64,000 nt of DNA from Marsupella aquatica (GCA_973895155.1 OZ316896.1:10551525-10615524); one strand, 5' to 3'; counted from the first letter of the stretch, positions 14,346 through 59,704 are shown. Numbers and translations are program-made. Notes: generated by a model from the letters alone, not told the origin.

Positions 14346-14390
14346 TACCTACGCTTCCGTTCTAACTTCATATCTCACGGCTTAAGAAAT

Positions 14391-18300: not shown

Positions 18301-18353
18301 TTGACGGCCCCCTTCCTCTTCATCTCTGCTGCCGTGGAGGTTTCTCCTAGCAC
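15336..18353 (-). pseudogene. 5'-LTR copy of ORF-B with one nonsense change
   Basis: CAG>TAG at 16971-16973 splits it into 460- and 523-aa pieces. Confidence 0.85.
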
Positions 18354-22039: not shown

Positions 22040-22954
22040 ATGGCTACCACCAGTAGGACACTGAAGAGGCTTGCCTCAGACCTTCCTCCTACACTGTTTG
22101 CTGGAGTTAGAGCAATTTTTGTTCCTCATACTAGGGGAGAGGACACGAATAGATGGGAGTTCATGAAAAGACAATTGGTTGAGAATGGAGGGATAGTGTT
22201 GAAACAAATCAGTAGAGACACCACACACATCATCGCTTATGATTGGTGTGATGTGATGCAGAAGTGGTTTTGGAGCACCATCAACTTTTATAGAGAGTCC
22301 TATGGTCTTAAGGTTGTTGATGCCTCTTGGATGTATGACTCTCTAGAATATAGCACCCTTCAGGACCCAACAGAGTATGGTATATGGTTGAACAAATGGG
22401 CCACCAAAGACATTTTTGCAGTTCAAAGCACAATATGATGATGCTTCACAGGGAACTAGGCAAGAGCTCTTAGAGCATCCTATGCCTATCATAAACCCCC
22501 ATGTGCGGGTCATATTTAGGGGGGTTAAGGTCATGTTTGTGGGTGTCGGGATTCCACTGGGAAGGTTGAGATGTTTCAAGCACAAAATTCTGCACAGGCA
22601 GGGTGAGGTGCATGAACGCCTCATAGATTCTACCACTCATGTGGTCACCCTATCCTATTCCAGACTTTGTCGTATGGTTGGAAAGACTTTAGTTTGGATG
22701 ATGGTTAATAGGGGCCTGCAAGTGGTTTCACCTGTATGGATGAAAGAGTCACTAATAGAGGCATTGTACTTGATGAAGCAGCCTTTGATCTGAATGAGGT
22801 GTGGCCTCAGAAGCCTAAGTACAAAAGACGTAAGAGCTGGGATGGAGGTGATGAACCATTAGTTAATGATGTACTCAGGGAGACAACCACAGAGTGGGAA
22901 ACCACGAGCGATGAGGACGAATACTCTTCTGACACTGGCAAATATAGTGATTAG
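22040..22954 (+). pseudogene. Tandem BRCT domain protein (CACTA cargo)
   Basis: Two repeats: LFAGV..NGG..TTHIIA..VVDASWMYDSL and IFRGVKVMFVGVG..RL..TTHVVT..VVSPVWMKESL; two frameshifts. Confidence 0.8.
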
Positions 22955-23449
22955 TTTATCTGATGAAGAGCCATGACAGTGTTAGTCATTTAGACAATGA
23001 ATACTTGTTGAGTGGTGAACTTGTTTCCTTCAAATTCCATCTGTAATAAAAACATTCATTGTCCTCTCATCATGTCATTCCACAATGAAATCATCTCTTT
23101 GCTTTGGATTCTGTTCAAATTCTGTTCAGTGTTGTGTGTCGTGTTGGCTTTTCCTTAACCAAGGATGTGGCTTTGTCCTCATGTCTACATACAAGGTTGC
23201 AAGGCCCCTACGGAGACAGTATGTACTGAAGGGGGTGTTTACAGAGCTGGGCAAATGTCCTTTGCTGTTTGTATTGTTGACAACTTCAACTCAGGTACAT
23301 GACCAATTCACATGACAACAATGCACTTCTTCTTTTGACCATTATTTAGTAGGCTACTTTGTTACCCTTTTCACCTATTGTTCATCACTACAGAGTTTGC
23401 AGTCTGTTACAATACACCCTGGTCACCACCCTCCCCAGACCCAACGCAA

Positions 23450-23989
23450 TGCACAGCCATTGCCTTTACATCATCCCATAAGGGTTGCACGCCATGACAA
23501 TAAGCTTTGGCAGCGTGAAACATTAAGAAATAGACTTGCAGGAGCCAGTAGGATGAGATGTCCTTGTGCAATCTGCCAAGGGACTCGTAGCACGATCCTC
23601 AGTGAGGTTTGGCAGCATATTGCAGTGAATGGGCAAGATCCACGACATCAAGTTTGGAATGATCTAGCAGAGGAAGATTCTTCTGATGAGGAGTGGAGGC
23701 AGATTTTGAGGCTGCCAATGTTGTGCGACGGTCGGAGGTGGATCTGCCAAGTGATTTGGACAATGCTATTGCTGGTCTATGTGGGATCACTGACCACCAA
23801 CAGGATGTGTGTCGGGCAGAGCCACATGACGAACGCATTCGTGTGGAACAGATGGTGCAAGACATCTTCCAGAACTTGGATGCATTTCATGATGGGTTGG
23901 ACAATGAAGACAACACTGATGCTGATGCAAGTGTGCCCCTAGTTGACAATCCTCTAGATGAGTTTGAGATAGGGCAAGATGTTGAGCAT
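23450..23989 (+). pseudogene. CACTA transposase N-terminal part (transposase-associated Cys/His domain)
   Basis: RCPCAICQG..VWQHIAVNG..VW. Joins in frame (GQDVEH-DWMFGSL) to 33353 when the insertion is removed. Confidence 0.8.
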
Positions 23990-24683
23990 AAATGACACTC
24001 ATAACGGTAAACACATGACACATCCAACACGTAAGTAGTCGACACAAGAGATACGTGGTTCACCTCCTCTCGGGGGCCTCAGTATACAGAGGCCCCCATA
24101 CCACGCTCGACGTTTTGGTCCCTTGTGACCCTAACTTATTAAGTAATTTTTTTTTTCTCCCTCCCTACCATGCTTAGAAGAATTCCAAATCCTTAAATTT
24201 TGACCCCTAAAAAAGGTTGAGTAAATTTTTGTCTTCATTTAAACATACCTTACTAAGAAAAGAAAAGTTCTTTCAAATGCGCACCTTTTTTGAGTGTTTG
24301 TCAAGATTATTTGAGTCTTATTGAAGCCCTCCTATGCTCCTTTGCTCCTTTGCATTGGCATCCATGATGTCTCATCATAAAAAACTTATAGTATATAGTG
24401 TTGATGCTTCCACTAAGAATCTCAATTCTAGTAGAAGCTTCAGCAATATACAATATGAGTTGTTCATATTTGCAATCTCCTATGCTTACAGTCTCATGTG
24501 AAAGGTAGGTGCACCAAAAGGAAATTGAGTTAACAATCTGAATGAGTGTATGTGGCAGAGGGGAATTGAACCCTTGATTGAGCAAGAAGCTCAAGTATCC
24601 AAATCTGCCACCCCCTAACCTATTCCCCTAACCTATCCCCTGTACCTACTTAAACCACTACCATGACTATGGATACATGCACA

Positions 24684-27600
24684 TCATTCAACTCTAGACA
24701 TGGTCTCTAGATAAGTATCCAAAGCTTGTTTGTCAACTCGATCTAACACATACACTAAGCCAATCCCTTGTTTCATGGTCAAAGTAACATTAGTCATCAC
24801 CATTTCTATATCAATCCATTGTAAATCAGTAGTATCATAAGTGAATTCAACCTTGCTTGAGCTTGTTGGCTTATACCAATTAAATAAAAAGACAAATACT
24901 CCCTATGTGTCCATGAGGAGGTGTAGGCCTGTCAAGCAAATCAATAGCAGATCTCACTCTAGTCCATTGTCCCTTAACTTTCTGTCTCATCATCATAATC
25001 CGACCAAGCCAAAATTCTTTCTTGGCTTGAACTTCTAGTTCCTGAGTCCTAGCTTTACCTCTTCCCTTACCTTTCCCCTTCTTTGATCTTGTAGAAGGGC
25101 CTGCAGCATTAGCACTTTCAAATGCTACTCCACAATCACTCCCAACATCAACAAAATAGGTCACAGTATTTGGATCACATTGTTTCCTCTTACCAAGATT
25201 ATATGCCACTTGTTTCGCCCTTGTGAGCCTATCCTTGGACAAATGAGGGTTGCCCACTAGTTGACTCACCAAAGTAGATTTGTAAATTGTTCTGCCCTCA
25301 TAGGTAACTGTAGGCAACACCTTCCTCTTTTCCTGTAGAGGGCTCTGAATAGACTCTGTAAGATCAGTCACAACAGAAGACAACACATGACGAACCTCAT
25401 GCCCCAAAGTATCTATCTCTATAGAATGAGGTTCTGGTACATCTAACTCAGCCCCATCCTGCAAAACATCGTTAGGAATGGTTAGCTCATCTGTCAACCA
25501 TGCATCAATTCGATTTAGATCTTCCTCAGGGTCTTCAAATTCATGAAACTCTCCTTCTGGACGAGGTCCAATTGGAGATCTATGCTCTACATGGTCTTCA
25601 GAATCGTCAACAACAACTGCCTCTGCTATGACAGTTGAATCTGGCCATGTTTCAACTTCCACATGCCAGGGGTGAGTCCACCATCGCTTTCTTGATGCTG
25701 GCAGATCACTTCGGGGAGATATTTGCAACCTTCTAAGGAACTCTTTTGCTTCTTCAAATCCTTCTTTCAAGGCTGTAACCACCAACTCATTAGTTTGCAC
25801 TTCAGAGTAATCAAAAAGATTAGGTGCATCTTCACCTTCAAGTAAAGGATGAAGCTTGGCCCACACATGATCTTGATTCTTATGTGATCGAGCTACTTTC
25901 AAGCCCTCTGGTCCACTTTCTAATCCAGCAAGACGATTCAACCCAACAGCACTATCTAACAAAGAGCCAAAGTCATAATTCCTCTCATGGCCACTCATTC
26001 CACCTACCTTGCTTAAAAAGATCTCACAACAATCAGAACCCAACTCATGAAATAGAATACACAAGTGAGAAAATTTATCACGAAATGCACATACAAGCAA
26101 CACAATGAACTGGCAAGACATATTAACATCATGAAAAGCTTGGATTGAAATCATATTTTTCTTTGTATGTGAAGCAACATTTCCACCTACAGCATGATCA
26201 CCATACCTTAACCACAACCTCCACAGTCGAAAGAACCAAGAAACTTTGCCTGCCAGTTTCACTCTAGTCCTTAGATCATGTCTCTGGGAGTAGAAAATGT
26301 CAATATAATCTGCACAGATCTGCAGATACAACTCTGTCCCCAAGCTTCGTTCATACAACATATCAGTTCTTGCATGTAGATCTGTTAAACATTCACGCAC
26401 CTTGTCTGATGCTATCCTCTGAGGACCAGCCCAATTCTGACGGTCAGATCTATTTACATCATCCCAATTCAATCCATGTTGATGAATTGGGTAATGATTG
26501 TACACATTACAAACATGAAACAGAGAAGCATGTTGGTCTCCAAGTGCCATTATTGAGGACACTCGATCTAGTGGGTTAATCAATTTTTTCCCACTGTGAG
26601 GTTGGTCTTGATCACCAAAACCATAGAGGTCCCCATTAGGCAATATGGCAACTGAGTAAGACCATCCTTCCCACCCTACAGAAAATCTAGGGTAAATGCC
26701 ATTTGCTCCTCTGTAGTCTTCTAACATCAATTTTCTGCGTCTTGCATCACCATCACTAGCATGCCCAAGCAAAGGACCTACAGAGTCTCTGCAATGCACA
26801 TCCCAAGATTCCTTCAATTGCACCCAATGCTCTCGAACCCATTCTGCCTTGAATTTGTTACATGTTGAAATAGCACAGAGGGCCAACTTTGGCATTCCAA
26901 CATGCAATGGATTCACAATGACAACTCTAGCATACATGCCCTTGTTAAAATCCTCAAATGTATTTACAATCTTGTTATAGCCATCCTCACCATCACCTAC
27001 AAGAATTTCTAATCCAAATTCATAGGTGTGCCCATCCTTATGGCCACAGAAACCAATCAGAGTGTCATATTTGGCCTCCCACCTGCACAGAGCCCAATGA
27101 GAACCAAGTCAGATTCAAAGAATTGGTTCAAAACTACATGCATCACAAATAGTCTTCACCTCCAATCACATCATTATGTGCTATTGCAATTGACGTACCG
27201 TGGGCTTTCCTTGATCCTGGTTTCATCCTCTACAAACATGACAGGCACATCCCCTACAATCCCCAACATCTCCTTTGTAGCAGACAGAATTCGAGCCACC
27301 TCCTTGAATGTTTCTGGCCTAATCCCAACACAAAATTGCACAAATTTTGCTCTGTCTCGTTTTAGTATCTTCAGGCTTGGCCCAGATAAGTTTCTTGCAA
27401 AAACATGTGCCACCTGCCGGCCTCCATATTGAAACATAGCCTGAGCAATGGCTTTTTTTTTTTACTGTAGCGAAACCCCCTTGCACTTCTCTCCAAATTT
27501 CTACCTACATCCTTCAAGAAATCCCAAAGACCTTCTTTTCCACCAAATGCACCATTCCTATGACCATTGACAATACTCCTTAAAAAAAGTCTCAAATCTT

Positions 27601-29119
27601 TTCTGTCTGCAACTACTCCTAATAGTTCTTGCAATTTTCTCTTCCTAGTACTCAAGGCACACACTTTCTGAGTCTGTAGTGCCAACAACCATCTCTCCTT
27701 TCTTCTCTTGATATTCAGGCCATGCATCTGTGTACTCAACTCTGGACGTGTCAAATAATGTGCATTCAAACCACCCTCTGTGCTTCTTTCCCCTCTCTTT
27801 GCTAAAGCCTCCGCTTCCCTGTGCACCCATCCACGAAAGTCATCTTCTAGTGTTATAGCATGACATCTACTGCAAGTTAGGTTCAGAAAACCCCCACCAT
27901 ACAAGGACAACCTACAACAATCTTTATGCCTAAATAATCCTTCTATATGTACAGTAGAATTTGTGTTAGGATTGTAGACATGAACAGAGATTGTAGCATC
28001 CATATTCCAGACATGTCCTCCCTGCTGATCATGCAAGATACCCTTCACAGCATACTTCACATTCTTCCACTCTACATATTCATCCCATATTCCCCAACAG
28101 AGCAAACTTAAGCCCACATCAATGTCTCTAGACCCACTTGTGCCAGAGCTGCTGCTTGCATTGGAAGCATCCTCCTTGAAGAATTTTAAGATTGAATTCT
28201 ATGAAGGATGTTGATCCCTCTCATCTGGCTTCCTTGGTCTTCCCCTCTTTCCAGATCTCAATGCAAGTTCAGCAGTATTCTCTCTGGCTTCAACTACATC
28301 CAGGTGACCTCGACTGACCAAGTGTGTCCTCAAGTTGTGATCCAAAGTCCTTTTCTTACAAACCAAATCCATGATTGCCCCACAGACTTTGCAACGAACC
28401 TTATAAAGGAACCACTTGTTTGCATTATTGGCTGGACCAGGCACAAGGGGCACATGAAATAACTCATCATCACCTCCACACTCAACATTCAGATTCTAGA
28501 CTATCTCTAGGCCAGTTGCTATGGCACCCTCATAATCAAACTCAAGCTTCTGTGCAAGATCAGAGGGCTTCAACCCAGTCATAGCAATACCCCTTCTCCT
28601 ACAGTAATTGTCTTTGTGTTTAGCAAAGGCAAGGTGCTTGGTCTTAAAATTGCTGAACAAATTAGCAATTGACTTCTTATCTTGGGAATTATCTGCCCTC
28701 CCATAGACCACTCTACACTCAAGACACTCCAGATGGCCTCTCACATCCTGTCCTTCATCCCATGTTCGAACTCTCCAATTATGATTTTTATAACCATTCT
28801 TCTGAGTCCACTTCTCCAGTCTTGTAAATTCATCATTCCAGACTTTGACAGCCACCTTAGACATCAGAATAGACTCAAAAGAAGCTCTCACAGGGGGAGC
28901 TTCTTGAAGCTGTTCACCCTGGGAAGAGTCCACTGCAACCGATTGGGTGACAGCAGCGGAAACTGATGGGAACCCTGTCCTAGCAAAAGGTAGGGATCCA
29001 ATTTGTTCAATGACAACAACTTTCCCATCCAATTCAGACAACTCAGTCATTTTCTCACTATTGACCTTCATGCGACCAGGAAGCCTATAATCCCAGAAAT
29101 CAAAATCAAAATCAACCAA
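24684..29119 (-). pseudogene. Large (~1400 aa) DDE transposase of P-element-like type with two N-terminal C2H2-like zinc fingers
   Basis: EDETRIK, ASDGD, DQPHSGKKLINPL (DxxH) and LGSDCCEIF occur in P-superfamily order. Fingers CLEC..HLAFAKH and CKVC..HLVSRGH. Two in-frame TAGs (28496, 28199), a poly-A frameshift near 27455 and an intron near 27090-27198. Confidence 0.7.
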
Positions 29120-29509
29120 TTCAGGAATTTAACTTCAAAAATCAGCTAAGGTTTGTCCTTCTTTGAAGGCCAACACAGCTATAGGTTCTTCATCTTTCCC
29201 GTCAGTCACCCAATCCCTTTTTTTGTGCAATAGCTTCACAAACTGGGTAGCCATTTCAATCAACTGGTTCAAGTAAGTTAAAGCATCAAGGGTTCTAAAT
29301 ACAATCACAGACACATATTGAACCTGCCATACATAATGAACCTGCCATCCAGCACAGTAAACAACACAATATGAATCAAATTAGAGACTGCTCAAAAAAC
29401 CTTTTCATAACCACATTTAAAGACCAACACAAACAATTCTTGTTGGTTATTGTTCACATGTGATTAGCCCAGTGAAGAAGTTTGCTTTGTACTATCAATT
29501 TCACAAACT

Positions 29510-32350: not shown

Positions 32351-33352
32351 CAATGCAGCCCCTGCATCACAGCCCCCGGCCCACTTCAAAGCTTTTTCTT
32401 TGTAAAAATGTTGATGCAACACCCAGCCCCCGATCCCCAAATTTTCCTTCACAAGCGCATTCGAATCATGTTCCCTAACCAGCCATCGCAAACTACAGCC
32501 GATGGATGGCCCAACAAATGGATGGATGGATGGCTGCCCAATTTTACCCTAAACTTGGTGTTGGACGGCTACGGCAACTAGTAACAAGAAACGGTCCCTT
32601 CCATGGACCCGAGCGACCAAATGTATGGCCCCATGATTTCACCCAAACGGCTCTAACTAGGATCGACGGACCTAAGTGACCCTCGAGTGGCTACCCTAAC
32701 CCTTGCTCTCCCCCCCTCCCTGTCCACCTCCCGCTCACACAAACAATTTGAAATTTTCCCTCAAAACTCTATGAAACCCACATGTTGCCCCTAAACCATG
32801 TTTATGCAAGGGAGTGCCACGTGGACCAATTAAAGGTTGACGCGTGTCACTAGTATATTTTCTTTCCCAACATACCCTATCTTAAACGTACAACTTATAT
32901 TGAAGAATTGAGTTTTTACCCATCCCTACCAAACTTCTAAGTTGCACTATTTATTTTTATACCCCTAAAGTTCTTCAACAAAACTTCTTAAGTCTTCCGC
33001 AACATCGAATTAAAAAACCCTATACTTAGTCGTGCGTGATGGGTCGGAAGGAAATAAGTGAGGACCCCGGGCACCTCCTTGAGGCTACGTCCACGGGAAC
33101 ACACAAGGAGCTTTACTGAACTCTAAGCCCATCGGCCATACCAAGTCTCCACAGTGTAAGCTCTCCTCATCTCTCAAGTGGCTCCATAACAATGAGCCTA
33201 AGTTCCACTTATCCAAGCAAACACCGCTTGGCATATAGTGTGCATCCTAGTTAACCTAACCACGTCTACGACTATGGTTAGCCTAACTACGGTTACATTC
33301 ATAAGGTTCCCTAGACCTTGAGTAAATACCTAACACAAGAAACCCTGGGCAT

Positions 33353-36300
33353 GATTGGATGTTTGGCTCTCTTGTGCAAATTCAGGAATGCAGGCACCCC
33401 CTGTATCCCGGTAGCAAGTGTTCCAAACTAGCATTTGTCATCATGTTCCTGAACATTTGCGGCAACCACAATGTCCCCAACATTTTTGTTTTTGAGTTGT
33501 TGGCCTTCCTAGGACTCACTGTGCTACCGCCTGATAATCTTTTGCCAAAGAGCATGTATGAGGCTAAAAGATGCATATCTAATCTTGGATTGAACTATGA
33601 TTCCATCCATGCTTGTCCTGATGGGCATATTCTCTTCAAAAATCAGTATAAGGATCTCTTGAGATGCACTGTCTGTGGGAAGCACAGGTATCAAAACGCA
33701 GGGAAGTCTTTAGTTTCAGCAAAGGTACTTCGTCATTTCCACTCATTCCTAGGCTTCAACGGATGTTTAGAAGCCCTGCTATCTCAAAGATGATGACTGG
33801 GGCAACTTAAAAAAAAAGCTCAGATGGGATGCAGGGACATGCTGCCGATTCAAGACAATAGAAACTCATAGATGAGATGTTTCCAGAATTTGCAGCAGGA
33901 GCCAAGGAATGTGAGGCTTGGGTTGTCATTGGATGGGGTAAAACCATTAGGAGACAAGAACAATAAGTTCTCATGCTGGCCTGTAACTATTTTGAATTAC
34001 AACCTTCCTCCTTGGATGACTACAAAGAGATTTTTTGTTCTCCTGGTTCTGCTGATACCAGGGCCAGACTCTACTGTGTCTGCCAACATAGACGTGTACC
34101 TGGCTAGCTCCCCTTGTGGAAGAATTGAAGAAGCTATGGATGAAGGAGTTCTCACATATGATGTGCTGCAGAGGCTTGGGAGGCTGAACCCATTCAGACT
34201 TAGAGCAATCATCATTTTGACTATAGCTGACTACCCAGCCCATGGTATTACTTATATTAGGACAAGTAACAAAAGGGTATCGGGGATGTACTATTTGTGG
34301 GCCCAATGTCACTAGTGAGCACTCTAGAGCTTTGGGGAAAGTGATATACATGGGTCATCGTCGTTTTTTGAGGCCAAATCACCCTTACAGATGAACGTGG
34401 GCACTCATTGCACACTTTGACCACACCATTGAGGATCGCGGACCCCTAGAACGGGTGACCAAAGAAGAGATCAAGCAGTGGGGAGCACTCAGGGATGACT
34501 ATATCAAACGAGGAAGCAGGCCAAATGCAATGGGTGATCCAGGAAAATGATATGGTGTGAAAAGACAAAGCATATTGGACTTGGAACTGGAGTATTGGAG
34601 GGTAAGCCTCTGAGGCTCTCTGCTCCTTTGAAAATGATTGTTGCTTTGGAATGCTTCATATGTTGTGCATGAATTTTGACTAGACTCAACTGGATGCATT
34701 TGCATACTCACTTTATATATATTGCAATTGTGCAAAAGTTTGAGCCAAGCAAACATAACATTGATGTGATGCACATTGAGAAGAATGTTTGTGAGAGTCT
34801 TCTGCAATTTTTGTGTGGAGAGAAAGACATTTGTGCTGTAAGATTGGATCTTGAACGGAGGGGTATCAAACCCCATTTGTGGTTGAGGCCACATGCCACC
34901 AAAGCTGATGTATTGTTAAAGTACCAAGCGCCTTATGTTCTGACAGATGATGAGTGGAACCTATTTGTCCAAAGGTTGGGTTCTTTGAAAGTTCCTTCAA
35001 ACTATGGGAGTGCTTTCAAGAAGCACATTATGAGTAGGAAGCTTGGTAGTATGAAAAGCCATGATTATCACCTGTTGATGCAACAGGTGTTGCCTTTATG
35101 CTTGAGGGGCCTCTTGCAAAAGCCTGTTCGTAATGTCATCATGCGATTGAGTGATGTGTTTTGCCGTATTTGTGTGAAGGTTTGGGATGAAGCCCACTTC
35201 CCACAACTCACAGAGGATGTTGCTCAGGTGCTTGGTGACTTGGAGATTTATTTCCCCCCAGCTTTTTTTGATGTTATGACTCACCTACTTGTCCATGTTG
35301 TGGAAGAGCTACACCAGTTTGGGTCTGTTAGTGCTCGTTGGCTGTACCCTTTGGAGCGATACATGAAGTTACTGAAAGGTCACGTTAGAACATATTACAA
35401 GCCAAAAGCAAGCATGGCTAAAGGTTACATCAAGGATGAAACCCTAGGATTTCTGGCCGAATACATAGCACAGTATGAGCATGTGAATATCAAGGTCTGG
35501 AATTTTGATGAGGAGGAAGGGGTCTGAATAGGGGAAGTATTGGAAGGGGCTGCAACAACAAAGAATTTGACAAAACTATGAGAGACTTGGCACATGTCTT
35601 TGTATTGCACAACACTGTGCTCATGGATCGGAACCTTGGATACAGTGAGTACAATCATGTCCTACTAACAACCTCCTTCATAACATATCATTGTCTGCAT
35701 GTGATTAACTCCCAACATTTGAATGTATTGCCAAGCTAATGTTGTGAGATTGTTTCTTCAGGGAGTACAAGTCATTGAAGGCTGCCCATCCCACTGTTGG
35801 TCCAACCTTTCCAAGTTTGGTAGAGTGGATCCGGCTAGCGATTAGGGAGCATCATACAACCCATCCAGACATGGATACAGACCTTTACCTCCTATCCAAT
35901 GCCCCTAGTCTGAAAGTGAAGAGTTACAAACGGATGAGAGCATATGGGAATCACTTTCGAGTGAATGATGTTGAGAGTGCGTACAGGGTGACAAATGAAT
36001 GTGGGCTCATTACTGTATTTCAATAGCAGAGCCATGACCATGATAGGGCCTGGATGGAGATGGGATATATGGGTGAACTAGTTGACATATGGGCTCTAGA
36101 TTATGGGGCCATGTCCAGCCCTGTCATTGTTATGAAAGGTTCATGGGTTCGGCAGGATTGGGACAGTAATAGGGCTACCATGAAGAGAGACAGTGATGGA
36201 TTCTTGCTTGCCAATTTTAGAGGGAAATTGCCTGAATGGTCTGAGCCATTTGTCTTTCCTAGTCAGGTGGAGCAAGCTTTCTTCCTGGATGTGGAAGACT

Positions 36301-36527
36301 CCTCAGGTTGGCGTGTAGTCTATCATAAACAAGCTAGGCAACGTCGGATGGAAGGATCTAAACTTGAGTTCCATTTACATTCTCATAGTGCCTTTGATCG
36401 TCGACGTGCACACCAAGTGTCTGTTGTTCATGATAGCAGGGACCTCATTCCTGTGACAAGGGTCGAGGCATTTGCTGAAGGGGATCAACTTATTGATCCA
36501 GATGCTGATAGTGAACCTGTGCCTTGA
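33353..36527 (+). pseudogene. CACTA Tnp2-family transposase (Transposase_21, DUF4218- and DUF4216-like regions), with introns, stops and frameshifts
   Basis: PLYPGS, IHACPDGHILF, RNVRLGLSLDG, YNLPPW, DYPA, HNIDVMHIEKNV, MKSHDYH, FFDVMTHLLVH, WLYPLERYM, EPFVFPSQVEQAFF. Confidence 0.93.
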
Positions 36528-48027: not shown

Positions 48028-48311
48028 CCTTGGAATTGATTTTTTTAATAATAGTTTTAACACGATTTCGGACCGACCGAGAAGTGTGACACACTTCTCG
48101 TTTAGCCCGATTCCATTTTTTTTCTAAGGCAATGCAATCTCTGATAAAATTGGTGAAAAATTAAAAAACACCACTTTCCTCCACTGCATCGTCGCGGGAA
48201 TGTAGGGAGCGATACGTGCATCGGGTTTTATATTCGGTCTGTGAAAAAGTCCAAACTGCGAGTAACTTGGTCCGAACCACATAATCGAGGAACGACCACG
48301 CACTAACCCGA

Positions 48312-48398
48312 GTTAAGGGGGAAAGTAACCACGGTTAAGGGGAAAGTAACCATGGTTAAGGGGGAAAGTAACCATGGTTAGAGATTCCCCTATATAAA
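48312..48398 (+). promoter_or_regulatory. Three ~23-bp tandem repeats followed by a TATA box
   Basis: GTTAAGGGG(G)AAAGTAACCAYG x3, then TATATAAA at 48391. Confidence 0.55.
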
Positions 48399-48689
48399 GA
48401 GGAGCGGGCTGCCCATAAAACGTTTGTTTTTGCCGGAGCGAACATCACCTCACTCAGAGCGAATATCGAACTCCCATTGAGTCTTACATTCCTCCCAAGA
48501 GACTTGACTCTTTCTCCAGAGAACCCAATAAATTCATCGGAACTATCATTCCTGTTTGAGTATCATCTATGTAAGGTTAACAGATCATTTGGTGTCAATG
48601 TCCAGATCCGAGCGGACTGCGATAAATTTATCGCATTCTGCATTCCTATGTTGCATTCATTGGATCCAGAAACATTAAGGTGTTGACTT

Positions 48690-48900
48690 CATTCCGATAA
48701 ATATATCGGAGTCTTCATTCCTTTGATGGATAAAGGATTAATTGAGACTGCGATAAATTTATTGGAGTTTCCATTCCTGTGATTGATTGAATATTGTTTG
48801 AGACTCCGATACATTTATCGGAATTTCCATTCCTATGATTGATTTAATATTGTTTGAGACTCCGATAAATTTATCAGAGTTTCCATTCCTATGATTGATT
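48690..48900. repeat. 56-bp-period tandem array, each unit with the CGATAAATTTATCG palindrome
   Basis: Palindromes start at 48693, 48749, 48805 and 48861. Confidence 0.9.
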
Positions 48901-49640
48901 GAAGAACTGTGATGGATTGAGGGCTTAGGTGTGGGGGGAAGTCATATCTTCAATTTGAATGCAAAGTGCGATAAACTTATCGCACCCTCCTGTGAGACTC
49001 ATTTCCTGATGTTTTGTGTATAGACTCATCTTCCAATCTGATGTCGCAGTGCTGCCGGGTGAAGGAGGTACAATGGAAGGTTGATTGCACTCGGTGGATC
49101 AAAGGTATAGTGACAAATGGCTGTCTTAATTCAAAATCGTGTCAAACGTGCACGCCGGTTGTACAAGGAACTCGTGCAATGTAAAGTTCTCCCCATTGGT
49201 GTGGGAGCGTTGTGGATGGGTGGGACTGATCCCGGAGATAGGCAGAATCCTCTCCGGATTGAGTTCTACGGAATGAATGGTGTTGGAGTTCCAATTTGTT
49301 CGAGGTTGATGTTAACGGCGTGTCTACATTCTTTGGACTTTTCTTGTAACAATTGTTGTTGACGTCTTAACAACAAGTACCATAAATTGGCATACTTATG
49401 TTGTCAAATTTGGAACAAAGACCCGTGGGTCAACCTTTCACGCTAAGTGTTGCAACCTTCACACTGAGGCGCGTTTTGTAAGGACATATTTAATTAAACA
49501 AGTCCTACCCTTGTGCAGCGAATATAATACATCCCGAGTCCTAATCGTTAAACTGTCATGTAGGGTTGGTACTGTGGATATCTTTGGTTACACCTGGTGA
49601 TTGAAGGTACTTTTATTGGTGGTTTTGGTAGCTCTGCTTC

Positions 49641-50174
49641 ATGGCTGCGTCAAAGAACCTAATCGTTGCAAAGATGGCATCTGAATTGGCCCACAAGCGT
49701 AGGAAATATATTCAAGGAAAAGTGGCCGGTATGGAAAGCAGAATTTTGTTGAATGGACTTCCCCATCCTTTCGTTGAATCTCATATTTGGCCTCTCTTGG
49801 CATTGTCTTGCACACAAGATGAACACCTTGGCCATGACCTAAAACTTTTACCCGAAGAACGACTGACTCGAATGAGAACAATCATTTGTCTTGGAGCCAC
49901 CTCAAAGAAATGGAACCATCTTGTTGTTGGTACATGATTTTGGGCGTTATTGAAATACGTAATCCATGAGATCAAGGACATAAACGAAATGCTCGCAAGC
50001 ATTCCTAATGTCAACCTTCTCTCAAACCTACATATTGCTAGGGTCTTTCGAGAGGAAACTCATTTCCTCCCTCCCATAGATATGCTTGGGTGCTTTTCGT
50101 ATGACCAATTAGATGCGTTTCTTAGAGTTTGGATGAATCTTGGAGAAAGCGGGAAGCGGACAATTCTTGCATGA
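49641..50174 (+). pseudogene. F-box-like small protein, one in-frame TGA
   Basis: LLNGLPHPFVESHIWPLL..IICLGATSKKWNHLV..FW resembles an F-box with an insertion; ORFs 49641 and 49950 are in the same frame. Confidence 0.45.
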
Positions 50175-50520
50175 CATGGACAAGTCTGAGTGGATTAGGC
50201 ATTGCTGCGCACATCCGATAAATTTATCGCGCTCCTCATTCCTCTAGTCGATTTAGGAGTCAATTGTTTTTTTGTGCTCTAAGGTTTGCTCGAGAAGAGC
50301 TTGTAAAGAAACACTTTGAATGTATATGACCCTGCCTCGTCTGACTTTGGGTTGTGTGGTCTAGAGTGTAGTTTTTTGCGCCTCTACGGACGATTACCTG
50401 ACAAGTGCATTTTCTTCACAGCCCGTTATACAAGGTACTTTAAAGTTGAATGAAACTTGTAGAATTGTAATGAGTATGTTCTCCAAAATGTATTCCTGAT
50501 TTCTATTCGCTGATCAGGCC

Positions 50521-51243
50521 ATGCTCGAGCGACGCATTTTTGTACCCTTCGTGGATCCTCCAGAATGGGGGAATGGCGCCATTATGGACCAGCTAAGGAG
50601 GCTGGATGAATCACTAATTTTAAAGATTTGCCATCTGGTAGCAAAACCATTTTATAATAACGCATATCACTTCTACGTAGACCAGGTAGGGGGAGAAATT
50701 TATATCCGGTGGGATAGATATGTTGCATTTTCTAGAAGAATTATCCTGCTCTTTCTTAAAACCGGTGCAGTAAAATGTTTTATACTGCACCGTTGTCATG
50801 TTGTGAAGGGCAATCGTGCTTATGAACCAGAATTCTATGCTCACAATAGACGTAGAGCATTCGATGAGATTCAGGATGTGATTGACCAGCTGGACAATCC
50901 TCTTGCCACCGAGTTTTTGATTGACACTGGTGGGAAGTTATATTCATACAGGACTTGTCAACTCCCCCCTCGGCCTCTTTGTGCGTTATTTAGGTTAGTT
51001 TATGTATCTTATTTATGGACAAATGTCCTTGACAATGGTGAGATGTGTCAGTGTTGCACAAATGCCTGTTGTGACGTTCCGTCACGCCGCTGTTCAGTAG
51101 CTGTAGTTAATCCTGAGACCTGTGCCACAGATTTTCATTGGTTGTGGGCCTATGATCATAGGATCACTCATATACCCCAATGGTCCAAGAAGCTAATCTC
51201 TCGCTGCGCTGTAGCGCGGTTTGATCTTGGGTGGGATGATTGA
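50521..51243 (+). CDS. Unknown 240-aa ORF/exon with Cys-rich C-terminus
   Basis: Uninterrupted ORF, CQCCTNACC motif, lies between palindrome clusters. Confidence 0.5.
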   Translation: MLERRIFVPFVDPPEWGNGAIMDQLRRLDESLILKICHLVAKPFYNNAYHFYVDQVGGEIYIRWDRYVAFSRRIILLFLKTGAVKCFILHRCHVVKGNRAYEPEFYAHNRRRAFDEIQDVIDQLDNPLATEFLIDTGGKLYSYRTCQLPPRPLCALFRLVYVSYLWTNVLDNGEMCQCCTNACCDVPSRRCSVAVVNPETCATDFHWLWAYDHRITHIPQWSKKLISRCAVARFDLGWDD

Positions 51244-51455
51244 TTAGGCACATTATCACATGTACACTCGGCCGTCAATTTAAAGAAGGCTCACTTTTTG
51301 TTCGGACCACTTTTGCGATAATTTTATCGGTCGTCTTCATTGCGGGTCTTTTGTCCTTATGTGTTATGAGATTTTGTGTCCACATGTGCTGTGACATTGG
51401 AGGCGATAATTTTATCACACTTTGCATTGGAATTTGTTTATTTGCAGACTTTTCC

Positions 51456-54400
51456 ATGGCTGCTAGTGGAAAGAGTGGATCTGCCAAGGCTGAAAGGCCT
51501 TAGTTTATTGACAATGTGCGGACGCAAGGGTTTCACATTTGTCATTGTTACTCTAGAAAACTTTGATGAGAAATTGATTGACTGTTATCCAGAAGATCCC
51601 CTTGTCGCCGAAGTTCGGACAGCAAGAGAGATGAATGTTATGGGTTCGGCTTGGGTGTGCCAGTATGTCCAAGATTGTGATGCGATCATGCTACCAAAGG
51701 TGAACGCAGAGTACAAGAGACTTGTGGGTGAAGAGTTCAAACCCGTCCAGAAAATTGTTTTCAAGAAACCTGGTTCAAGCGGCAACGGTGGTTCTTATGC
51801 CGATAAAAGGTCGGGCGGTAAAGAACCATTGCAAACCTCTACATATATTGACGTGGATGAACGCACAACTTCTGGTCGGGTTTCGGGAAGTGGAAGAGGG
51901 AAAGGGAGAGGTAGCAACAGGGGAGATGCCACGGGACCTTCTGATGGCGGGAAGAGGAGCCAGGAAACTGGCGGTAGTGGGAGGGGACGGGGCAACCATC
52001 AAGGACGTGCTTCAGAAGGACCGTCCGTTAATCCAAGCAAAAGTAAAGGATCCAAGGGATCTGGGCCATCTGGTTCTGGACTTAGCACAAAGAGGAAGAA
52101 GACTGGGTGGAGTGAAACGGTGGCTCCAGAAGTAGATAGAGCTCCATCTAATACATCAATTCCTTCAGTTCTCGTCGAGCTTCCTGCAATGCCATTGGTA
52201 AGTATAACGTCGTTTAGTATTGTTAAACAAATAAGGAATTCGATAAAAATCTTGCTGTTGATTTCCTTAATTGAATTCGCACATCATTTAGTTGTGTTGA
52301 ACAAATGTGGACTCCGATAAAAATCTCGCAGTCTCTTTCCTCAATTGAATTTGACACGCTTTTGTAGACAAATGCGGACTCCGTTAAAAATATCGCAGAT
52401 TCTTCGCTTAATTGAATCCGCAACGCTTTTGTAGGCTGATCAGGAGGAGGAGATGGCTCTTTCGATGTATGAGACTGACGCCATCAAAGCAGAGCTCAGT
52501 CTATTGATGCAACGAAGGGTGCACAGGACAACTGTCCTTCTGCATGTCGACAATCTGATATTTGATGAGGAGGGGGATATGTCAACTTTGATTAGACCAG
52601 TGGATAGATTGCATGTAAAGAATATCAAGATACTTCTCATGAAAAACCCCACGAACTTCAGTCCCCCGTTCGTGCTGTGTGTGGATTCGAAGGATTGTCC
52701 CACACCCGCAGATTGGGACATCTTGAAGTCCAGGGTATGGAAGTATAGAATTATTGGAGGGAACCATGGTGCTCGGGCAAAGTCCGAGTTGTATAAAATG
52801 TACAGCAAGCAAATTTATGGCGAGCTGGAAGCTTGGGTTTACACTGGGCTTACAAGATCCAAGGTCTGAAAGTTGGGCTTCCATCATAATTATGACCAGG
52901 AGTATCGGAAGAACATGACTCACATTGACCAAGTTCGTGCTTGTCATAATATTTACCTAGAAATGGGTGTGGGCTCGACTAAAGATGTTCGCGAAGCATG
53001 TTGTCAAGAATGCATGATGGATTACACACCAGGCGTTCGTGACTCCATGGCCAAACACAACCCAGCTTTCCAAATTGCTTTCCGAACAAGTGAAATTTGG
53101 GATCTTCAGGAGAAAATTTTCCAGATGTGGGAGAAGGGTGTTGTCTTAGGACAACCCAAAAAAATTGTGGCAATGACAAACGCAAAGGGAAAGGTAAACC
53201 CTTTGACGGTAAGGGAGATTAAAATGAATAAACTTGCTGGGGACCTCAACTTAAATTCATTTCGAGGTCTACAAGGACTGGCAAATAAGGAGCACGTCAA
53301 GCGTATCTTGAATAGGGTTATCGGGAAGGTGATCACTTTGGATCAAATGCACAAGGAAGGTGAGAAGCTGAAAAAGCTTGCCAAGGTGAAGAAACTATTT
53401 TTGCAGATATCTGGTCAGCTAGATTGGGCAACGTGCAGAGAAATGTTTCCCACTGAAACAGATGTCTCGGTCCTTGGCATATGGGCGGAGAAATTGAGTG
53501 ACGCGGTAAGCATTTCTCTGACCGCGAGATTTTTATCGGCTTTAGCATTCCATTGTAGGTTTCTAAGCGGTTGTATTTATCGGCTATCGTGACCCATCGT
53601 GAGATTTTTATCGGGTTTTGGATTCATCTCACGTTATTCTAGCTGTAATGTGTGTGACATTTTTACAGCTGAAGATTAGTTCAAAAAGAAAAAACAAAGT
53701 GGTTCCGGCTGTTACTTATAATTCTGTGGGGGAGGTTATTGTTCCCTCGGCTGACATCCCGTATGTGTTTAAGAATTTTGTGCTTGCTGCAATTGATAAG
53801 TACAACTGGCTCTGGTCCTTAGGCCAGGGCACAGCAGAAGCGTTGGAACAAACATGGAAAAATGCTGATGGGGATACGTTCCCCTACTATCTCCATGTTG
53901 GTAATGTTCGAATTTTGGATTCTTTTGTTGAGCCAAGGGCTTACACCCTTGCGGTCGCGGATATTCCGTATGGTTTTAATGCTCCTGGTTTGGAGTTTGA
54001 TGAAGTGTCCTTCACACAAAAGGACGTTTTAGATATGGTGACAAGTTTTTCAAAGATGATGACCACTAAGCAGTGGAGGTTTGTTGTGATCCATTCACTA
54101 CAACAAACTCATATGGTGATGTCTGCACTTGAGAGTGTATGCAGCTGTGGGGTCAAGGTTGGAATCTGGGAGAAGACTAATGTTCATGAGCGTCCCGCTG
54201 GCGCTCGATTGGCGTGGGGTTTTGAGAACTGGTCGATGGGTTTCTATAGCGAGGAAGGCATTCGGAACATGAACATGTACAATTTTCAACCGGATGAGTC
54301 TCGCATCAATATCATCAAGGTTCCATGTGTAACCAAGAAATCTGTTGATCCATTGGGATGTGTTGTGAACCCGTATCAGAAGCCTGTTGGTTTGGGGGCT

Positions 54401-54781
54401 TGGTTTGTTTCCCATTTCTCTGAGAAAGAGGATTGGGTTATAGATCTTTGTTGTGGAACCGGATCAATGTTAGTTGCTACGCTCCTCAATTCTCGGCAGG
54501 GTTGTGCTGTCGATAAGAGTTCTACCCAGATTGATTTTGTGAAATCCCGGATCATGACTCTAGAGTTAAACTGGAATCTATTTGAAGAATCCCAGATTGA
54601 AGGGCACGGCGTCAAAGGTCATGAGATTCAACCACCAATTGCAGGCCAATTGGGTGTTCTCAAGACATCAACTTACGCAATTGAAGTCGTGAAGGAGACT
54701 GAAGAGGAACAAGAAGAAACTGAGGAAGAGCCTCCCAGAACACCAAATGAGGATGATCTCAACGCCATGTTATTAGATTAG
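51456..54781 (+). pseudogene. Three-exon gene (~970 aa): G/S/K-rich linker, ParB/Srx-like domain, beta-class N6-adenine/N4-cytosine DNA methyltransferase
   Basis: IRPVD..YRIIGGNHGARA (ParB-like). VADIPYG precedes NPYQKP..VIDLCCGTGS..AVD (motif IV before motif I). Phase-0 GT-AG introns 52198-52434 and 53506-53668 join the frames. Lesions: TAG 51501, a nearby frameshift, TGA 52867. Confidence 0.85.
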
Positions 54782-55145
54782 TTAGTCAGATGTGCTAGTT
54801 GGAATTTCTTGGCATCACAGTCAATGAGAAATAGAGTTGTCGATAAATTTATCGGATTCTGTATTCCATCAAGGAGAACCGTTGTAACCTTTCTTCATGC
54901 GATAAATTTATCGGACTTTGCATTCCACGGTCTAGCTATCCGACGCTCTAGCAATTCCACTCCCTCCGCTCTAGCTTTTGCACTCCCTTGTTGTCGATAA
55001 TCTTATCGGACTTTGCAATCCACGCTCTAGCTGGTCTGTCATTACAATAATTTCAAACAAAAAAATCATTATAGCTTTGGAGAACAACATAGTCCCAGAT
55101 GTTCACGACTGCGACCATCCTCATGGGAACGATAACGATTATAAC

Positions 55146-57383
55146 TTAAACCTCCACTTCCATCACTGAGCAAGTTCTTGCCCAAAATGGTTCCAAGATG
55201 GACTCCTTGCCATCTCCCAATTCAAGATTCTTCATGGTAGAGGCACACATGACCCACACACTTTGTGAAGCCTTGAGTACCTCTTCTTGACTGATTTTTG
55301 CCACTTCTTGTGACTTGTCAAACTTTTCTCCCATCAATGGTTCCCATCTTCCCAAGTCCAATAGCTTAGCTTCTAACATCTTTGGTTCAGAAACTACCTC
55401 CTTTGAAGACTCTGGCATCTGTGGTCCAAAAACTTCATCATTTGAAAACCCTAGCATCTGTGGTCTAGGGATCTTCTCCTTTGAAGACCCTGGCATCTGT
55501 GGTCCAGGGATCTCCTCCTTTGAAGACCCTAGCATCTATGGTCCAGGGATCTTCTCAACATTCACTTGATACACTTGACACTCTGTATTAGCTCTTGAAA
55601 ATGAACCTTCTCCATCCTCTCCAACTTCAGAATAAAACTCTACTCCCAATGCATGAGGTCCTTCTTTATAAAATCTTTTTCGCTTCACCTTTGCAAGTAA
55701 AGCATCTTGAGCTTTGGAGTTCATGCAAGCAAAAAACTCCTCATTGGTGACTCCATTCACTGTGGCTTTCCAAAACTTATCAGCAACTTGGTCATACTCT
55801 ATGTGTTGCTCCACATCCCTTCCAAGTATCCAACCAGGTCCTTTCTTTTCTACTTTCTCCTTTTTTACTACTTCCAACTCCTTTGAAGGGGTTGAAGTAG
55901 ACTCTTTTGGTGTGCTTGCTCTGTCCTCAAATCGAACACTCCTTCTCATTGGCACATCAGATGATGGTCTAGGAGTAGAAGGTCCAGAATCCACTTTCTG
56001 TTTTCCTTTAGCACGTTCTTCCAAAGGCTCCACAGACTTCCTCTTCTCCTCCTCCATAGAATCCCATAGAGACCCTACCTCTACAGTAAAAGCAAAGATC
56101 AAAACAGGATCATTTCAACCTGATTTTCTCCTTACAAACTCTGTCAGCCTTTTCTTCTCTGTCTCTGAGGATGCTGCTGATGAAGGATCCCGAAACACAG
56201 TGTAGACATCTGCTTCATGCTCACCTTTGTCCCCATAAGTTGCAGCAATGGCTGAGTTATGATGTTCAACCATTCTCTTCTCCACTAGTACCTTCATGCC
56301 ACCTTTGTTGGCATTGACTGGAAGAAGTTCACCCGAATCATGATAGGCAAGCTTTCTTATGCCATCATGCTCAACAAACTTAACCATTCTCTTCTTTAGA
56401 GCAACAGACAGCTCAACACACTCTCTTCTAGAGTGCTCTTTGCTATCACACCAAATACAATTCCAGCTTCTTGGTCCTCCGATAGAACTTCCTGCTCCTC
56501 CACTACCTCTTGATGGTGGTCTCAATGTGTTGCCTCCAATTTGTCCCAAAGCTTGGGTGGCAAGAATGGTAAGATTCTTTATGAGTTCAGACAACTCATC
56601 CATCTTGTCCACACTCTTCTCACCCCTACCGGTTGTTGACTCCATCTTCTCCACTCTCCTCATAGAAGCCATAGGTGCTACTGTATCCAGAACACCTTCA
56701 TGACTGAGTTTCTTCCTTTTGTGTTTTTGACTGACTCTTAGCACAGCAGTCTCAATCTCCTCCCAAGTTGGCTGATTAGCCCCATGACTCGGGTTCAGTA
56801 GTTCAAGAGCAAGCTCTAACTCATCTTGAAGCTTCTCATCAGCAGCCCGGATGAGTAGAGTAGCCTTCTGGACCTTGATAACTTCAGATCCTATCTCAGG
56901 AAGTTGATTGAACTTCTTGACAAACTCCCTCATCAACTCTTGAGGTCCCAACTTCTTAATTCTGTCAGTCACCCAATCAAGGAAAGATGCCCGGGTGATC
57001 CTATTTGGATCTTCCAGCTTAAATTCTTCTTTCATTCTCAGCTCAAAAATATTCCATGCCTTTTCTCTATTAGCTCCCTCTGTCAAGGAAATAACAATTT
57101 CCTTGAGTTCAGGTTTCGCCAAAGATACAAACTCCTTGACTGCTATCTCACCATCAATCTTGTGAATTGTAGCCTCTGTCCAATATCCCTTGAGATACCT
57201 TGTCACATACCTCCGATCAAATTCTCCTTGCTTAGTAAGAACTGAGTGCAAGTACTTTGTGGTCCTTCCAAGCAACTCCTTCTTCTTGTTCTCCTCCATC
57301 TCCTTCTCCTTCATTCCATGTAAGTATGCAGCAACCAAAGATGAAAACCTCTCCATGTCAATTGGATTAATCTCAGTTCCCAT
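55146..57383 (-). pseudogene. gag: Gag with CCHC knuckle, two in-frame stops
   Basis: CIWCDSKEHSRREC; three same-frame ORFs; 39-bp coding tandem repeat x4 at ~55398-55556. Confidence 0.75.
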
Positions 57384-58394
57384 GATTGCAATTCTTCCCT
57401 CTTGACTAATGATATATTAAAAACTCAAAGACTCATAGTTCCAAAAGTCATATCACTCTTCTTCAACTAGAACTTAGACTTGCACAAGCTAACTCCAAAA
57501 TCCAGCGGTTCCCCAGTATGGTCACCACTTATATCCGGGTGACCGTGTTTTCTGGTAAGAACATGTTGGCTCTTATGAAGTCAACCTTGCATGCCCATAA
57601 GTTCTACACTAAAACCAAAATGATAACTCTTGTAAAAAGGGTGGTGGGTATTAAGAAAGGTTCAGGTGAAACTAATATACTATTAAATCCTACTTCACCA
57701 TACTTGCGGATCAACACATCTCAAAAAATAATTTTTCTACGACATACAATCCTAATATCTCCAAGAGAAAATGAGATAGGAATGTCATTTGGACTCCTAT
57801 TTAGATCCATGACTTCAATAAAGGACAAAGATAATGCACTCCCACTCCTCTCGATAAGACACTACTGGGTATACTATTGGCTCATTAGAACTCATAACAA
57901 CAGCTGCAAATTGAGCTCCAAAGTGATAAGTTAAATACTGCCTCATGGATGGCTTGTCTAAAAGATGGACTCTAACCAAAAATGGATTACAAAGGGGAAG
58001 ACTAGGGATATCTCTCCCTCCTGGATTCATAATGATTCTCTTGTTCCTTTGCTATCCGGGCCAAAGGATGCTCCACCCCTAAGTTCCCAAAGAGACCTTG
58101 TTCCTTAAGGTCCCATCTATAAGTCTACCACTCATTCCTTTGCTATCCGGGCCAAAGGATGCCCCACTACTATGTACATAAGGCAAAGAATAGAAGAGAA
58201 AGATGAGAGAAGAAAAGAGGATTGTTTCGACGCGGAAATTATCAAAATGTGGGAATGAGGAGAAAGTGCCCCTCACCACTTTATTTATATTGAATCCAAG
58301 AGGGCATGGATTACGCCCAAACACTTGGATGAAAGCCAAGTGGCACACATCCAACGTAGGAATGTGTGCTAGTACTATTGCAATCAAAACAAAT

Positions 58395-58730
58395 AATGCA
58401 TGCAAGTAAAACAACTAATGCATGCACCTAAAATAATTTGTGCATGCATGCACCTTGTGGCTTGCACATTTGCTCATCTTGCATGCGCATAAAATAACTA
58501 ATGTATGCAAATAAAACAATTTGCATGCATCTAAAACAATTTGTGCATGCACCTTGTGACTTGCACATTTGCTCACCTTGCATGCACTAATGCATGCAAA
58601 TAAAACAATTTGCTCACCTTGCATGCACATAAAATGACTATTGCATGCAAATAAAACAATTTGCACATGCATCCAAACAATTTGTGCATGCATCTTGTGG
58701 TTTGCATAGTTGCTTACCTTGCATGCACAT
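58395..58730. repeat. TGCATGCA-rich tandem repeats within the LTR
   Basis: Repeated ATGCATGCAAATAAAACAATTTG and TTGCTCACCTTGCATGCAC units. Confidence 0.85.
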
Positions 58731-59704
58731 ACATAATAGTCAAATTATTTAATTATCTCGTAATAATATATAAAGCTAACCTATATACTTACTTATATAC
58801 TTAGTGGTAATGATTTCATCATGAATAATTGAATTATCACGACACTGTCGCCCTAAACGACAAAATAACAGAGAAAGGTATATTTCTTGGATTTATAATT
58901 TCATTCTTACACGTGCAAAATTATATAGTTTTGAATTGAAGCGATAAATTTATCTGATGTTGGTATTGCAAAAGGTGTTTCTTTCATATGGAAGTTGCAA
59001 TTTTGAAATTGAAGCGATAAATTTATCTGATGTTGGTATTGCAAAAAGTGTTTTCTTCATATGGATAGTTGCAATTTTGAAATTTAACCGATGAACCGAA
59101 GCATCTTAGTATTGTCAACAAGTATTTTTGCCGTCCGTAGTTTTCGCGATAATTTTATCGCACTGCGCATTGCTGTTGAAACAATGGCATGTTGACTATG
59201 GTCACTTTGGAGGTAACTATGGTCAATTGCGGAGGTAACTACAAGGTAAGTCTGACAAACCGTGCAGTAATTTCTTATCGACTATGATATAAAATAGTTA
59301 CGGTAAATAACCAAAAACTGAGAAAACTGAGATTGAGTCGGAACTTTCATTGTTGAAATCCGGAGTCCGATACAATTATCGGACTTTGCTCGAAAAGTGG
59401 ATATGGATTTCTAGATAAGACCTTTCATATATCTTTGGAGAGCGTGAATATGAGGTTCAGGCAAAAGTTTTTCGTATCTAATTTTTCCTTGATAAATTGA
59501 ATGTTTGTGAGCATTAATTTCAGTGGTTTGGAACATTCCTGAATTTCCTGATTAAATCCGAACTCCGATACGGATTACATTATTTCCCCAAAAACCTATT
59601 TTTGATGAAAAAAACCACTGATTTTGCGAGATTCGGCGTAAAATGAAAACATACTTCTTGTTTGCGGAAATAGTTCTCGTTCGGTCGGAAATTGTATTTT
59701 TTAA

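Follow-up and report, generated by a model that had tools for sequence, protein, structure and literature searches.

We analyzed a 64,000-nucleotide stretch of the Marsupella aquatica genome (GCA_973895155.1 OZ316896.1:10551525-10615524), hereafter the window, in which a mobile element carries a gene for a ParB-like protein joined to a DNA amino-methyltransferase. The non-coding DNA of this element contains many copies of a site with two parts: a 16-bp palindromic core, whose sequence changes between subfamilies of the element, and an ATT box at a fixed distance from the core. We propose, with a probability of about 0.6, that these sites are bound by a dimer of the element's own ParB-helix-turn-helix (HTH)-methyltransferase protein and are then methylated. 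An earlier reading of the window (the original prediction) had noted both the palindrome and the gene, and had proposed a parS-like system by which the element marks itself.

Cores and ATT boxes in non-coding DNA

The 16-bp palindrome SCGATAAATTTATCGS has 20 matches with up to three mismatches in the whole window, all of them between 48525 and 59382, and 100 shuffled sequences gave a mean of 0.58 matches and a maximum of 3. When four mismatches were allowed, 24 sites were found in the element's own DNA, none in a retroelement nested in it and two in the other 52 kb. Modelled coding sequence accounts for 53% of the DNA that belongs to the element itself and contains none of the 20 sites; each of the seven non-coding segments contains at least one. 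A palindrome confined to the element and to its non-coding DNA had been predicted, and both statements are borne out, as is a perfect 18-mer at 48618-48635. Of 21 coordinates given in that prediction, 19 lie within three mismatches of the core, and those at 52240 (five mismatches) and 53599 (four) are more degenerate. Its list overlooked a site at 48525 (two mismatches) and degenerate sites at 48209 and 53568 (four each).

Other copies of the window's family were seen in four public runs from two studies (X1-X4), used as contigs, whose depth does not equal copy number; one of these runs may be the window's own source. Most of the contig depth has a perfect core at 48525 and 48806. Among 40 of the 114 differences between the window and other copies, four fall in cores; three of these restore the palindrome, and the fourth swaps G for C at an S position of the core. 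Among these 40 differences, other copies have a perfect core where the window copy has decayed.

Departures from the core at 48527, 48763, 48876 and 51417 are C-to-T or G-to-A changes at a core CpG. These changes suggest that cores can carry 5-methylcytosine (5mC), and 5mC on a core might switch binding off. The ratio of observed to expected CpG reaches 0.60-0.69 in the five coding parts of the element and 0.58-0.64 in a Ty3 element; it is 0.41-0.50 in parts resembling long interspersed nuclear elements and 0.15-0.25 in five other relics, among them the gag region of the nested retroelement. As a sign of 5mC loss induced over the element by its protein, this contrast is a weak hint confounded by age, and is not used as support here.

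Related genes were found at six loci of one metagenome (L001-L006), with identities of 55-61% for L001-L005 and 44% for L006. No further loci came from genome contigs or viral contigs (one stretch was confirmed in genome contigs). Within the window and the six loci, and with up to two mismatches, three cores were distinguished. The window core is present in 16 copies in the element and in none of the six loci; CCGATCCAAACATCGG is present in 20 copies in L001 and nowhere else; and GCGA(G/T)ACnnGTCTCGC is represented by 16, 6, 8 and 5 copies in L002, L003, L004 and L005, respectively, and occurs exclusively there. Thus, the predicted tie between palindrome and ParB-methyltransferase gene holds in that five of the six loci have sites, but the sequence of the palindrome is not kept across subfamilies. 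What the three cores share is a 16-bp frame, S-CGA-N8-TCG-S. Across the window element and L001-L005, none of 75 sites lies in coding DNA and all 22 non-coding segments are occupied. In a methyltransferase tree of 19 rows, from which L006 was excluded, the three cores fall on three clades (support 100/99, 100/99 and 91/94), so that the covariation of site and protein for which the original prediction suggested looking is found at the level of clades.

The second part of the site was detected by its spacing. ATT occurs exactly 7 nt outward from the end of the core in 94 of 150 arms in the window and L001-L005, compared to 2.2% at other offsets. The counts are 18/40 in the window, 20/40 in L001, 29/32 in L002, 5/12 in L003 (with four more at offset 8), 14/16 in L004 and 8/10 in L005. 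ATT at 7 is the leading combination of offset and triplet in five of these six sources, and L003 is split between 7 and 8. The consensus of the box is (C/T)ATT(C/G), and the spacer between core and box varies (14 of 18, 18 of 20 and 31 of 56 spacers are distinct). The L001 core is asymmetric, and 19 of its 20 sites have the box on the GGATCGG side; in L002, L004 and L005 it is often present on both sides. The generic pattern CGA-N8-TCG-N8-ATT, which leaves the middle of the core free, has 14, 20, 20, 4, 10 and 8 matches in the element and L001-L005, respectively, with shuffled means of at most 0.10, and none in L006, in the nested retroelement or in other DNA of the window. The 16-bp palindrome of the original prediction is therefore correct as a core and incomplete as a site. 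A constant box at fixed spacing next to a changing core is the pattern expected of a protein with two domains, and is hard to obtain from drift of repeats.

The ParB-methyltransferase protein and its possible action

The predicted structure of exon 2 (predicted local distance difference test score, pLDDT, 88.8) has Noc and ParB as its best fold matches (E 1e-5), in agreement with a ParB-like protein. Its N-domain aligns with Caulobacter ParB over 99 residues (Z 11.4, root-mean-square deviation (rmsd) 2.2), and its DNA-binding part aligns moderately with Spo0J bound to parS over 102 residues (Z 5.8, rmsd 4.1). When both domains are compared jointly with ParB and Noc, 174-188 residues are aligned at an rmsd of 8-9. 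A homodimer model of L001 exon 2 scored 0.48, compared to 0.00 for the best of three controls, with contacts agreeing at 46% or more and pLDDT of at least 72. Among microbial structures, 21 of 30 solved dimers and none of 23 single chains passed the mark set for a dimer; among eukaryotic ones, 17 of 29 dimers passed it (one of the seven that have no older solved relative), as did none of 30 single chains. The modelled L001 score may be owed to likeness to solved ParB dimers.

The position of the GxxR motif reads GGNHG in the window, L001, L002 and L004, the arginine being replaced. This arginine is required for nucleotide binding in ParB folds, according to the parts of bioRxiv 2025.10.10.680097 covered here. 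The analogy with parS proposed in the original prediction thus stands for the fold and for 16-bp palindromic sites in cis, and does not extend to the CTP-binding arginine. No ParA ATPase was recognized by Pfam among the scanned open reading frames (ORFs) of an element of which a part is missing.

Exon 3 is predicted to fold as a beta-class DNA amino-methyltransferase, in line with the amino-methyltransferase of the original prediction; its closest match is CcrM (E 5e-13), followed by M.BceJIV and bdelloid N4CMT. Its motifs are arranged in the beta-class order, with a catalytic motif of the (D/S)PP(Y/F) type in IV: ADIPYG (IV), NPYQKP (X) and DLCCGTG (I). Within the DIPY motif, D, P and Y are invariant in all 22 aligned sequences (the alignment took 21 of 30 matches), and the S-adenosylmethionine-binding motif DLC(C/S)G is retained in the sequences that reach it. 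A D-type catalytic motif favors N6-methyladenine (6mA). Identity is below 20% to solved enzymes and 22-28% to the phage rows listed.

At E of 0.001 or less, 143 relatives of the ParB part were found; 9 of the 38 that were scanned also match N6_N4_Mtase, which makes the fusion a family. Pfam misses the ParB domain, and a profile search of solved sequences returned methyltransferases only. Neither the methyltransferase query nor a transposase fragment recovered longer fused forms, although these are weak negatives. In an Atlas feature search with the ParB part (P0032), fungal DUF3723 proteins ranked first (0.95, 173 shared features), which suggests that DUF3723 is a related ParB-like family. DUF3723 proteins are cargo of Starship elements. 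Among distant ParB relatives, P0058 has a SAM domain and P0076 a weak Tudor match, and P0038 apparently has two ParB-methyltransferase units.

ParB recognizes the palindrome parS through its HTH domain, two molecules being arranged with two-fold symmetry (PMC7383237, covered in part). By analogy, a ParB-type HTH dimer of the element would bind the 16-bp core, and it is quite probable that it reads the core as a barcode of the subfamily. The fused enzyme would thereby be placed on DNA near the core, where the ATT box is a natural candidate target. That the DIPY enzyme is active and makes 6mA is slightly more likely than not. More tentatively, the methylated adenine may lie in the ATT/AAT box, at a distance set by the bound dimer. 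On the opposite strand the box reads GAATR, which resembles beta-class targets such as GANTC, the target of CcrM, although this is a resemblance only. Barcodes would spread within an element through tandem duplication, keeping subfamilies separate. Finally, the mark or the bound protein might keep copies transcribed against host silencing, as in VANC, a role for which we see rather less than even odds; its chief alternative is self-repression. The full scheme, in which an addressable plant adenine methyltransferase reads a barcode, methylates the box, protects its subfamily from silencing by a 6mA self-mark and swaps barcodes in evolution, like ParB and Noc before it, is considerably less likely than its first steps, and we would not expect all of it to hold.

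Several other explanations account for parts of these observations. The same protein could bind and the ATT box could be a second protein-DNA contact, as part of nucleoprotein assembly or self-repression, with methylation absent or elsewhere. Phage P1 parS has two types of box, the densest cluster of sites in the window, L001 and L002 directly follows a TATA-like box, the repressor KorB is among the fold matches, and the protein has additional domains (exon 1 and helices after residue 300). We nevertheless consider this explanation unlikely, given that the invariant catalytic motif (22/22) and the kept DLC(C/S)G suggest an active enzyme, and that GAATR is similar, as a matter of resemblance, to beta-class targets. 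Quite improbable, in our view, is that a transposase or transposase-derived domain binds the sites for pairing of ends or transcription, like Spm TnpA, with the ParB-methyltransferase as unrelated cargo. Transposases and TnpA do act sequence-specifically on their own elements (bioRxiv 2026.08.24.746577, covered in part), 11 of the 20 sites are in the outermost 1 kb on either side, and joint inheritance of transposase and cargo means that covariation of clades cannot separate the two. However, the other 9 sites, among them those in both introns of the ParB gene, are separated from either end by over 2 kb, the terminal inverted repeats (TIRs) lack the core, the TnpA effects described in the covered parts of that source are limited to termini, and a 16-bp dyad fits the ParB-type dimer encoded alongside.

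An explanation without any protein of the element, in which neutral tandem duplication and gene conversion produced the sites or a host factor binds them, appears very improbable. Many sites do lie inside tandem units of 56, 59 and 73-74 bp, and the lack of sites in L006 would fit. Against this, the cores have switched jointly in the leader, introns and 3' flank and in both orientations; spacers have diverged around a fixed core length, CGA-N8-TCG frame and ATT offset; and a host factor would be unlikely to switch its target between subfamilies.

Binding and methylation by the element's own protein is the explanation we prefer, and a number of observations weigh against it. The window copy is broken and has no transposase, the transposase of the family has been seen only in part, and the six relative loci are all drawn from a single metagenome. 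The distribution of three cores over three clades represents only some two independent switches, which is not enough to prove coevolution. In what is likely the recognition helix, L002, L004 and L005 have H at position 210, and the window and L001 have P; since the latter two share P despite their different cores, this covariation in the HTH is anecdotal. L006, which is 44% identical and has DIPY, lacks sites throughout 1986 bases, two introns and a 3' flank among them, so that the family of proteins is not always accompanied by sites. Sliding of the element's ParB as a clamp is doubtful because the GxxR arginine is absent (GGNH). In addition, the N4-cytosine enzyme N4CMT is among the top fold matches, where enzymes of both kinds are found, so that the product may be either 6mA or N4-methylcytosine (4mC).

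Organization of the element and its surroundings

The coordinates of the element and its sites are collected in Table 1. We place its boundaries at 48059-59698, flanked on both sides by a 4-bp target-site duplication (TSD), TTTT; the ends given in the original prediction (48061-59696) are corrected accordingly. TSDs of 8 or 9 bp, as in hAT, KDZ and Mutator, were considered and excluded, as terminus 48059 yields symmetric ends and TTTT. In run X4, 14 contigs diverge at 48059 into unlike flanks (agreement 0.4), and contigs of runs X1, X3 and X4 contain a joint from 48051 to 59699, resembling an empty site, that skips the whole element. The unlike flanks and the joint in three runs identify a repeated mobile family.

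Table 1. Features of the element, with positions counted from the first base of the window.
Feature	Position	Strand	Remarks
Left TSD, TTTT	48055..48058	.	duplicate at 59699..59702; joint
Left TIR, 25 bp	48059..48083	+	21/25 identical with right TIR
Three TAACCA(T/C)GGTTA repeats, then TATA-like CTATATAA at 48390	48326..48397	+	putative promoter
Leader cluster, seven sites (48525, 48619, 48694, 48750, 48806, 48862, 48968)	48525..48983	.	partly in 56-bp tandem units
Gene 2, broken ORF	49671..50174	+	stop at 49935-49937; no Pfam match, none in L001-L006
Intergenic site with ATT box	50215..50230	.	core and box match
Gene 3, Cys-rich ORF, 240 amino acids	50521..51243	+	no Pfam match, none in L001-L006
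Two sites upstream of ParB-methyltransferase gene	51315..51418	.	core matches
Exon 1	51456..52197	+	N-terminal domain and low-complexity linker
Intron 1, GT-AG	52198..52434	+	sites 52314 and 52381; degenerate 52240
Exon 2	52435..53505	+	ParB-type nucleotide-binding fold, HTH-type DNA-binding domain, helical C-terminal part
Intron 2, GT-AG	53506..53668	+	site 53524; degenerate 53568 and 53599
Exon 3	53669..54781	+	beta-class amino-methyltransferase (ADIPYG, NPYQKP, DLCCGTG), acidic tail
Three sites in 3' flank	54840..55009	.	core matches
Nested truncated long terminal repeat (LTR) retroelement fragment	55041..58844 (left edge approximate)	-	LTR from 58844, gag-like ORFs
Four right-end sites (58941, 59014, 59146, 59367)	58941..59382	.	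core matches
Right TIR	59674..59698	-	pairs with left TIR
Right TSD, TTTT	59699..59702	.	matches left duplication

The ParB-methyltransferase gene consists of three exons separated by GT-AG introns. From about 51499 onward, its exon 1 weakly resembles by homology the first exon of L001 and L002, and a loose contig end is present at 51496 in run X2; a deletion or frameshift near 51496 is likely. Exon 2 contains an in-frame stop at 52867-52869. A site-bearing intron before the ParB exon is also present in L001 and L002, and L001-L005 share the junction of intron 2.

The segment 48326..48397 is a likely promoter of the element, and in L001 and L002 a TATA-like box is likewise located upstream of the leader sites. 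A short palindrome, TAACYATGGTYA, is present in three copies upstream of the left TATA-like box (48326-48380) and in two copies near the right end (59193-59225), with a near match at 4-15 of L002, upstream of the TATA-like box there; it may be a promoter element common to both ends. The interval from the leader sites to the ParB gene also holds two or three further ORFs (49030-51243), of which genes 2 and 3 were compared with Pfam and the six loci. This region is covered by contigs of all four runs and is absent at that position from L001 and L002.

A convergent gene on the minus strand follows the methyltransferase in L001, L003 and L004. The L003 gene, of which only the C-terminal part was recovered, has a GHTHD..DQMF motif and DUF7869 (E 3e-7); the GHTHD-type motif would link it to the DDD transposase of Sola-1. 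No match to a convergent transposase gene of the L003 type was found in the window, where the nested LTR fragment occupies the place that this gene has in relatives. Given the gene order in L001, L003 and L004, the lost transposase is likely to have had its promoter region in the segment 58941..59382. To the left of 58845, the sequence of other copies differs from that of the window and contains CACGTG, GGCCCA and CCAAT-like words; that it is a promoter of the lost transposase is plausible.

The element is likely a cut-and-paste transposon of the Sola-1 group, an assignment based on the 4-bp TSD and the AAC termini that it has in common with Sola1-1_Ec32 of Ectocarpus. A target preference of AWWT has been reported for Sola-1 (PMC3845634, covered in part). 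TTTT is the only target site observed here, compared to AWWT, and the Ectocarpus family is biased toward an ending in A.

Other mobile DNA was seen in the window, whose repeat content suggests a land plant as host; Atlas taxa point the same way more weakly. A Ty3-type retroelement extends over 4472-18993, with a gag-pol flanked by nearly identical regions of antisense-side ORFs (4472-8129 and 15336-18993); these repeats are unusually long and bear ORFs. Inspection by eye detected a Cys-rich PHD-like ORF and a BRCT-like ORF at 21114-22438, which are faced by a broken transposase-like gene on the minus strand at 24880-29128; 21114-29128 is possibly another DNA transposon with chromatin-reading cargo. 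A broken relic of a CACTA/EnSpm-like transposase was noted, also by eye, at 33326-36527.

Significance and relation to known systems

Two papers of 2025 on algae proposed that ParB accessory proteins of transposons bind and modify their own element (PMC12477816, bioRxiv 2025.02.11.637652). In the passages covered, neither names a target sequence, and one regards VANDAL as the sole transposon group known to act in this way. ParB-methyltransferase cargo has already been published. Neither cores that switch between subfamilies nor a fixed second box turned up in our literature search, which largely did not reach subscription journals.

The candidate target is now defined to the base, and three natural pairs of protein and site can serve as controls for one another. 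The constant box predicts a position for the putative methyl group, and the self-marking hypothesis becomes directly testable with the apparently intact L001 gene and short oligonucleotides. If the proposal is true, the system would be a counterpart of VANC based on a writer enzyme, a use of ParB/parS logic in a eukaryote and a means by which plant DNA acquires 6mA or 4mC locally. It would also provide a mobile source of site-specific plant 6mA and a natural two-part targeting module.

The closest known element is Sola1-1_Ec32, which carries an accessory gene for a ParB-like protein with an N4C/N6A methyltransferase, and for which self-binding and self-marking were proposed (PMC12477816, covered in part). 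It shares with the window element the pair of domains, a gene on the strand opposite to that of the transposase, a 4-bp TSD and AAC termini (AACCG, compared to AACAC in the window), but it belongs to a brown alga, is 21.5 kb long and has a 282-bp TIR. The word stem 'palindrom' is absent from the main text of that paper, the single match in its supplement concerns another family, and the passages covered contain no target site, subfamily switch or second box. Plavaka PAG3 of Bostrychia is an accessory gene with a ParB domain, and adjacent tandem arrays of inverted repeats were proposed as binding sites (bioRxiv 2025.02.11.637652, covered in part), so that a transposon ParB gene again has proposed sites in nearby inverted repeats. 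According to the covered parts, its ParB domain is fused to a 2-oxoglutarate oxygenase, another gene (PAG2) encodes the N6A methylase, the arrays adjoin the gene and do not extend through introns, and the elements are of the EnSpm superfamily and from red algae; Supplemental Fig. 13A may show the repeat sequences.

Fusions of the same kind are known elsewhere. ParB-N6N4-methyltransferase fusions, joined as in the window protein, are common in prophages (bioRxiv 2025.10.10.680097, covered in part), and ParB-HTH has been found fused to a different, chlorophyte-type class of Dam (PMC4738411, covered in part). CcrM, M.RsrI and bdelloid N4CMT have the motif order and fold of exon 3, at low identity.

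In Arabidopsis VANDAL elements, motifs in introns, intergenic and terminal DNA differ by subfamily and recruit VANC (PMC5735166, covered in part). Subfamily-specific non-coding motifs that are multiplied by tandem repeats and go with an accessory protein are common to both systems. VANDAL differs in being Mutator-like, in its 9-base non-palindromic motif and in the loss of 5mC caused by VANC, which was shown experimentally; the window element has instead a 4-bp TSD, a ParB fold joined to what is predicted to be a writer enzyme, and a dyad with a fixed box. ParB/parS and Noc/NBS resemble it in fold, HTH-type domain, predicted dimer and 16-bp palindromes, and have paralogs whose site sequence has switched (PMC7383237, covered in part). 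Unlike ParB and Noc, the window protein has no GxxR arginine, no ParA seen with it and a fused methyltransferase, and it is encoded by a spliced eukaryotic gene whose sites have another sequence and an additional ATT box. The system is a member of neither group, because it is not Mutator and lacks GxxR; it is like VANC/VANDAL in its layout and like ParB/parS in its fold and site.

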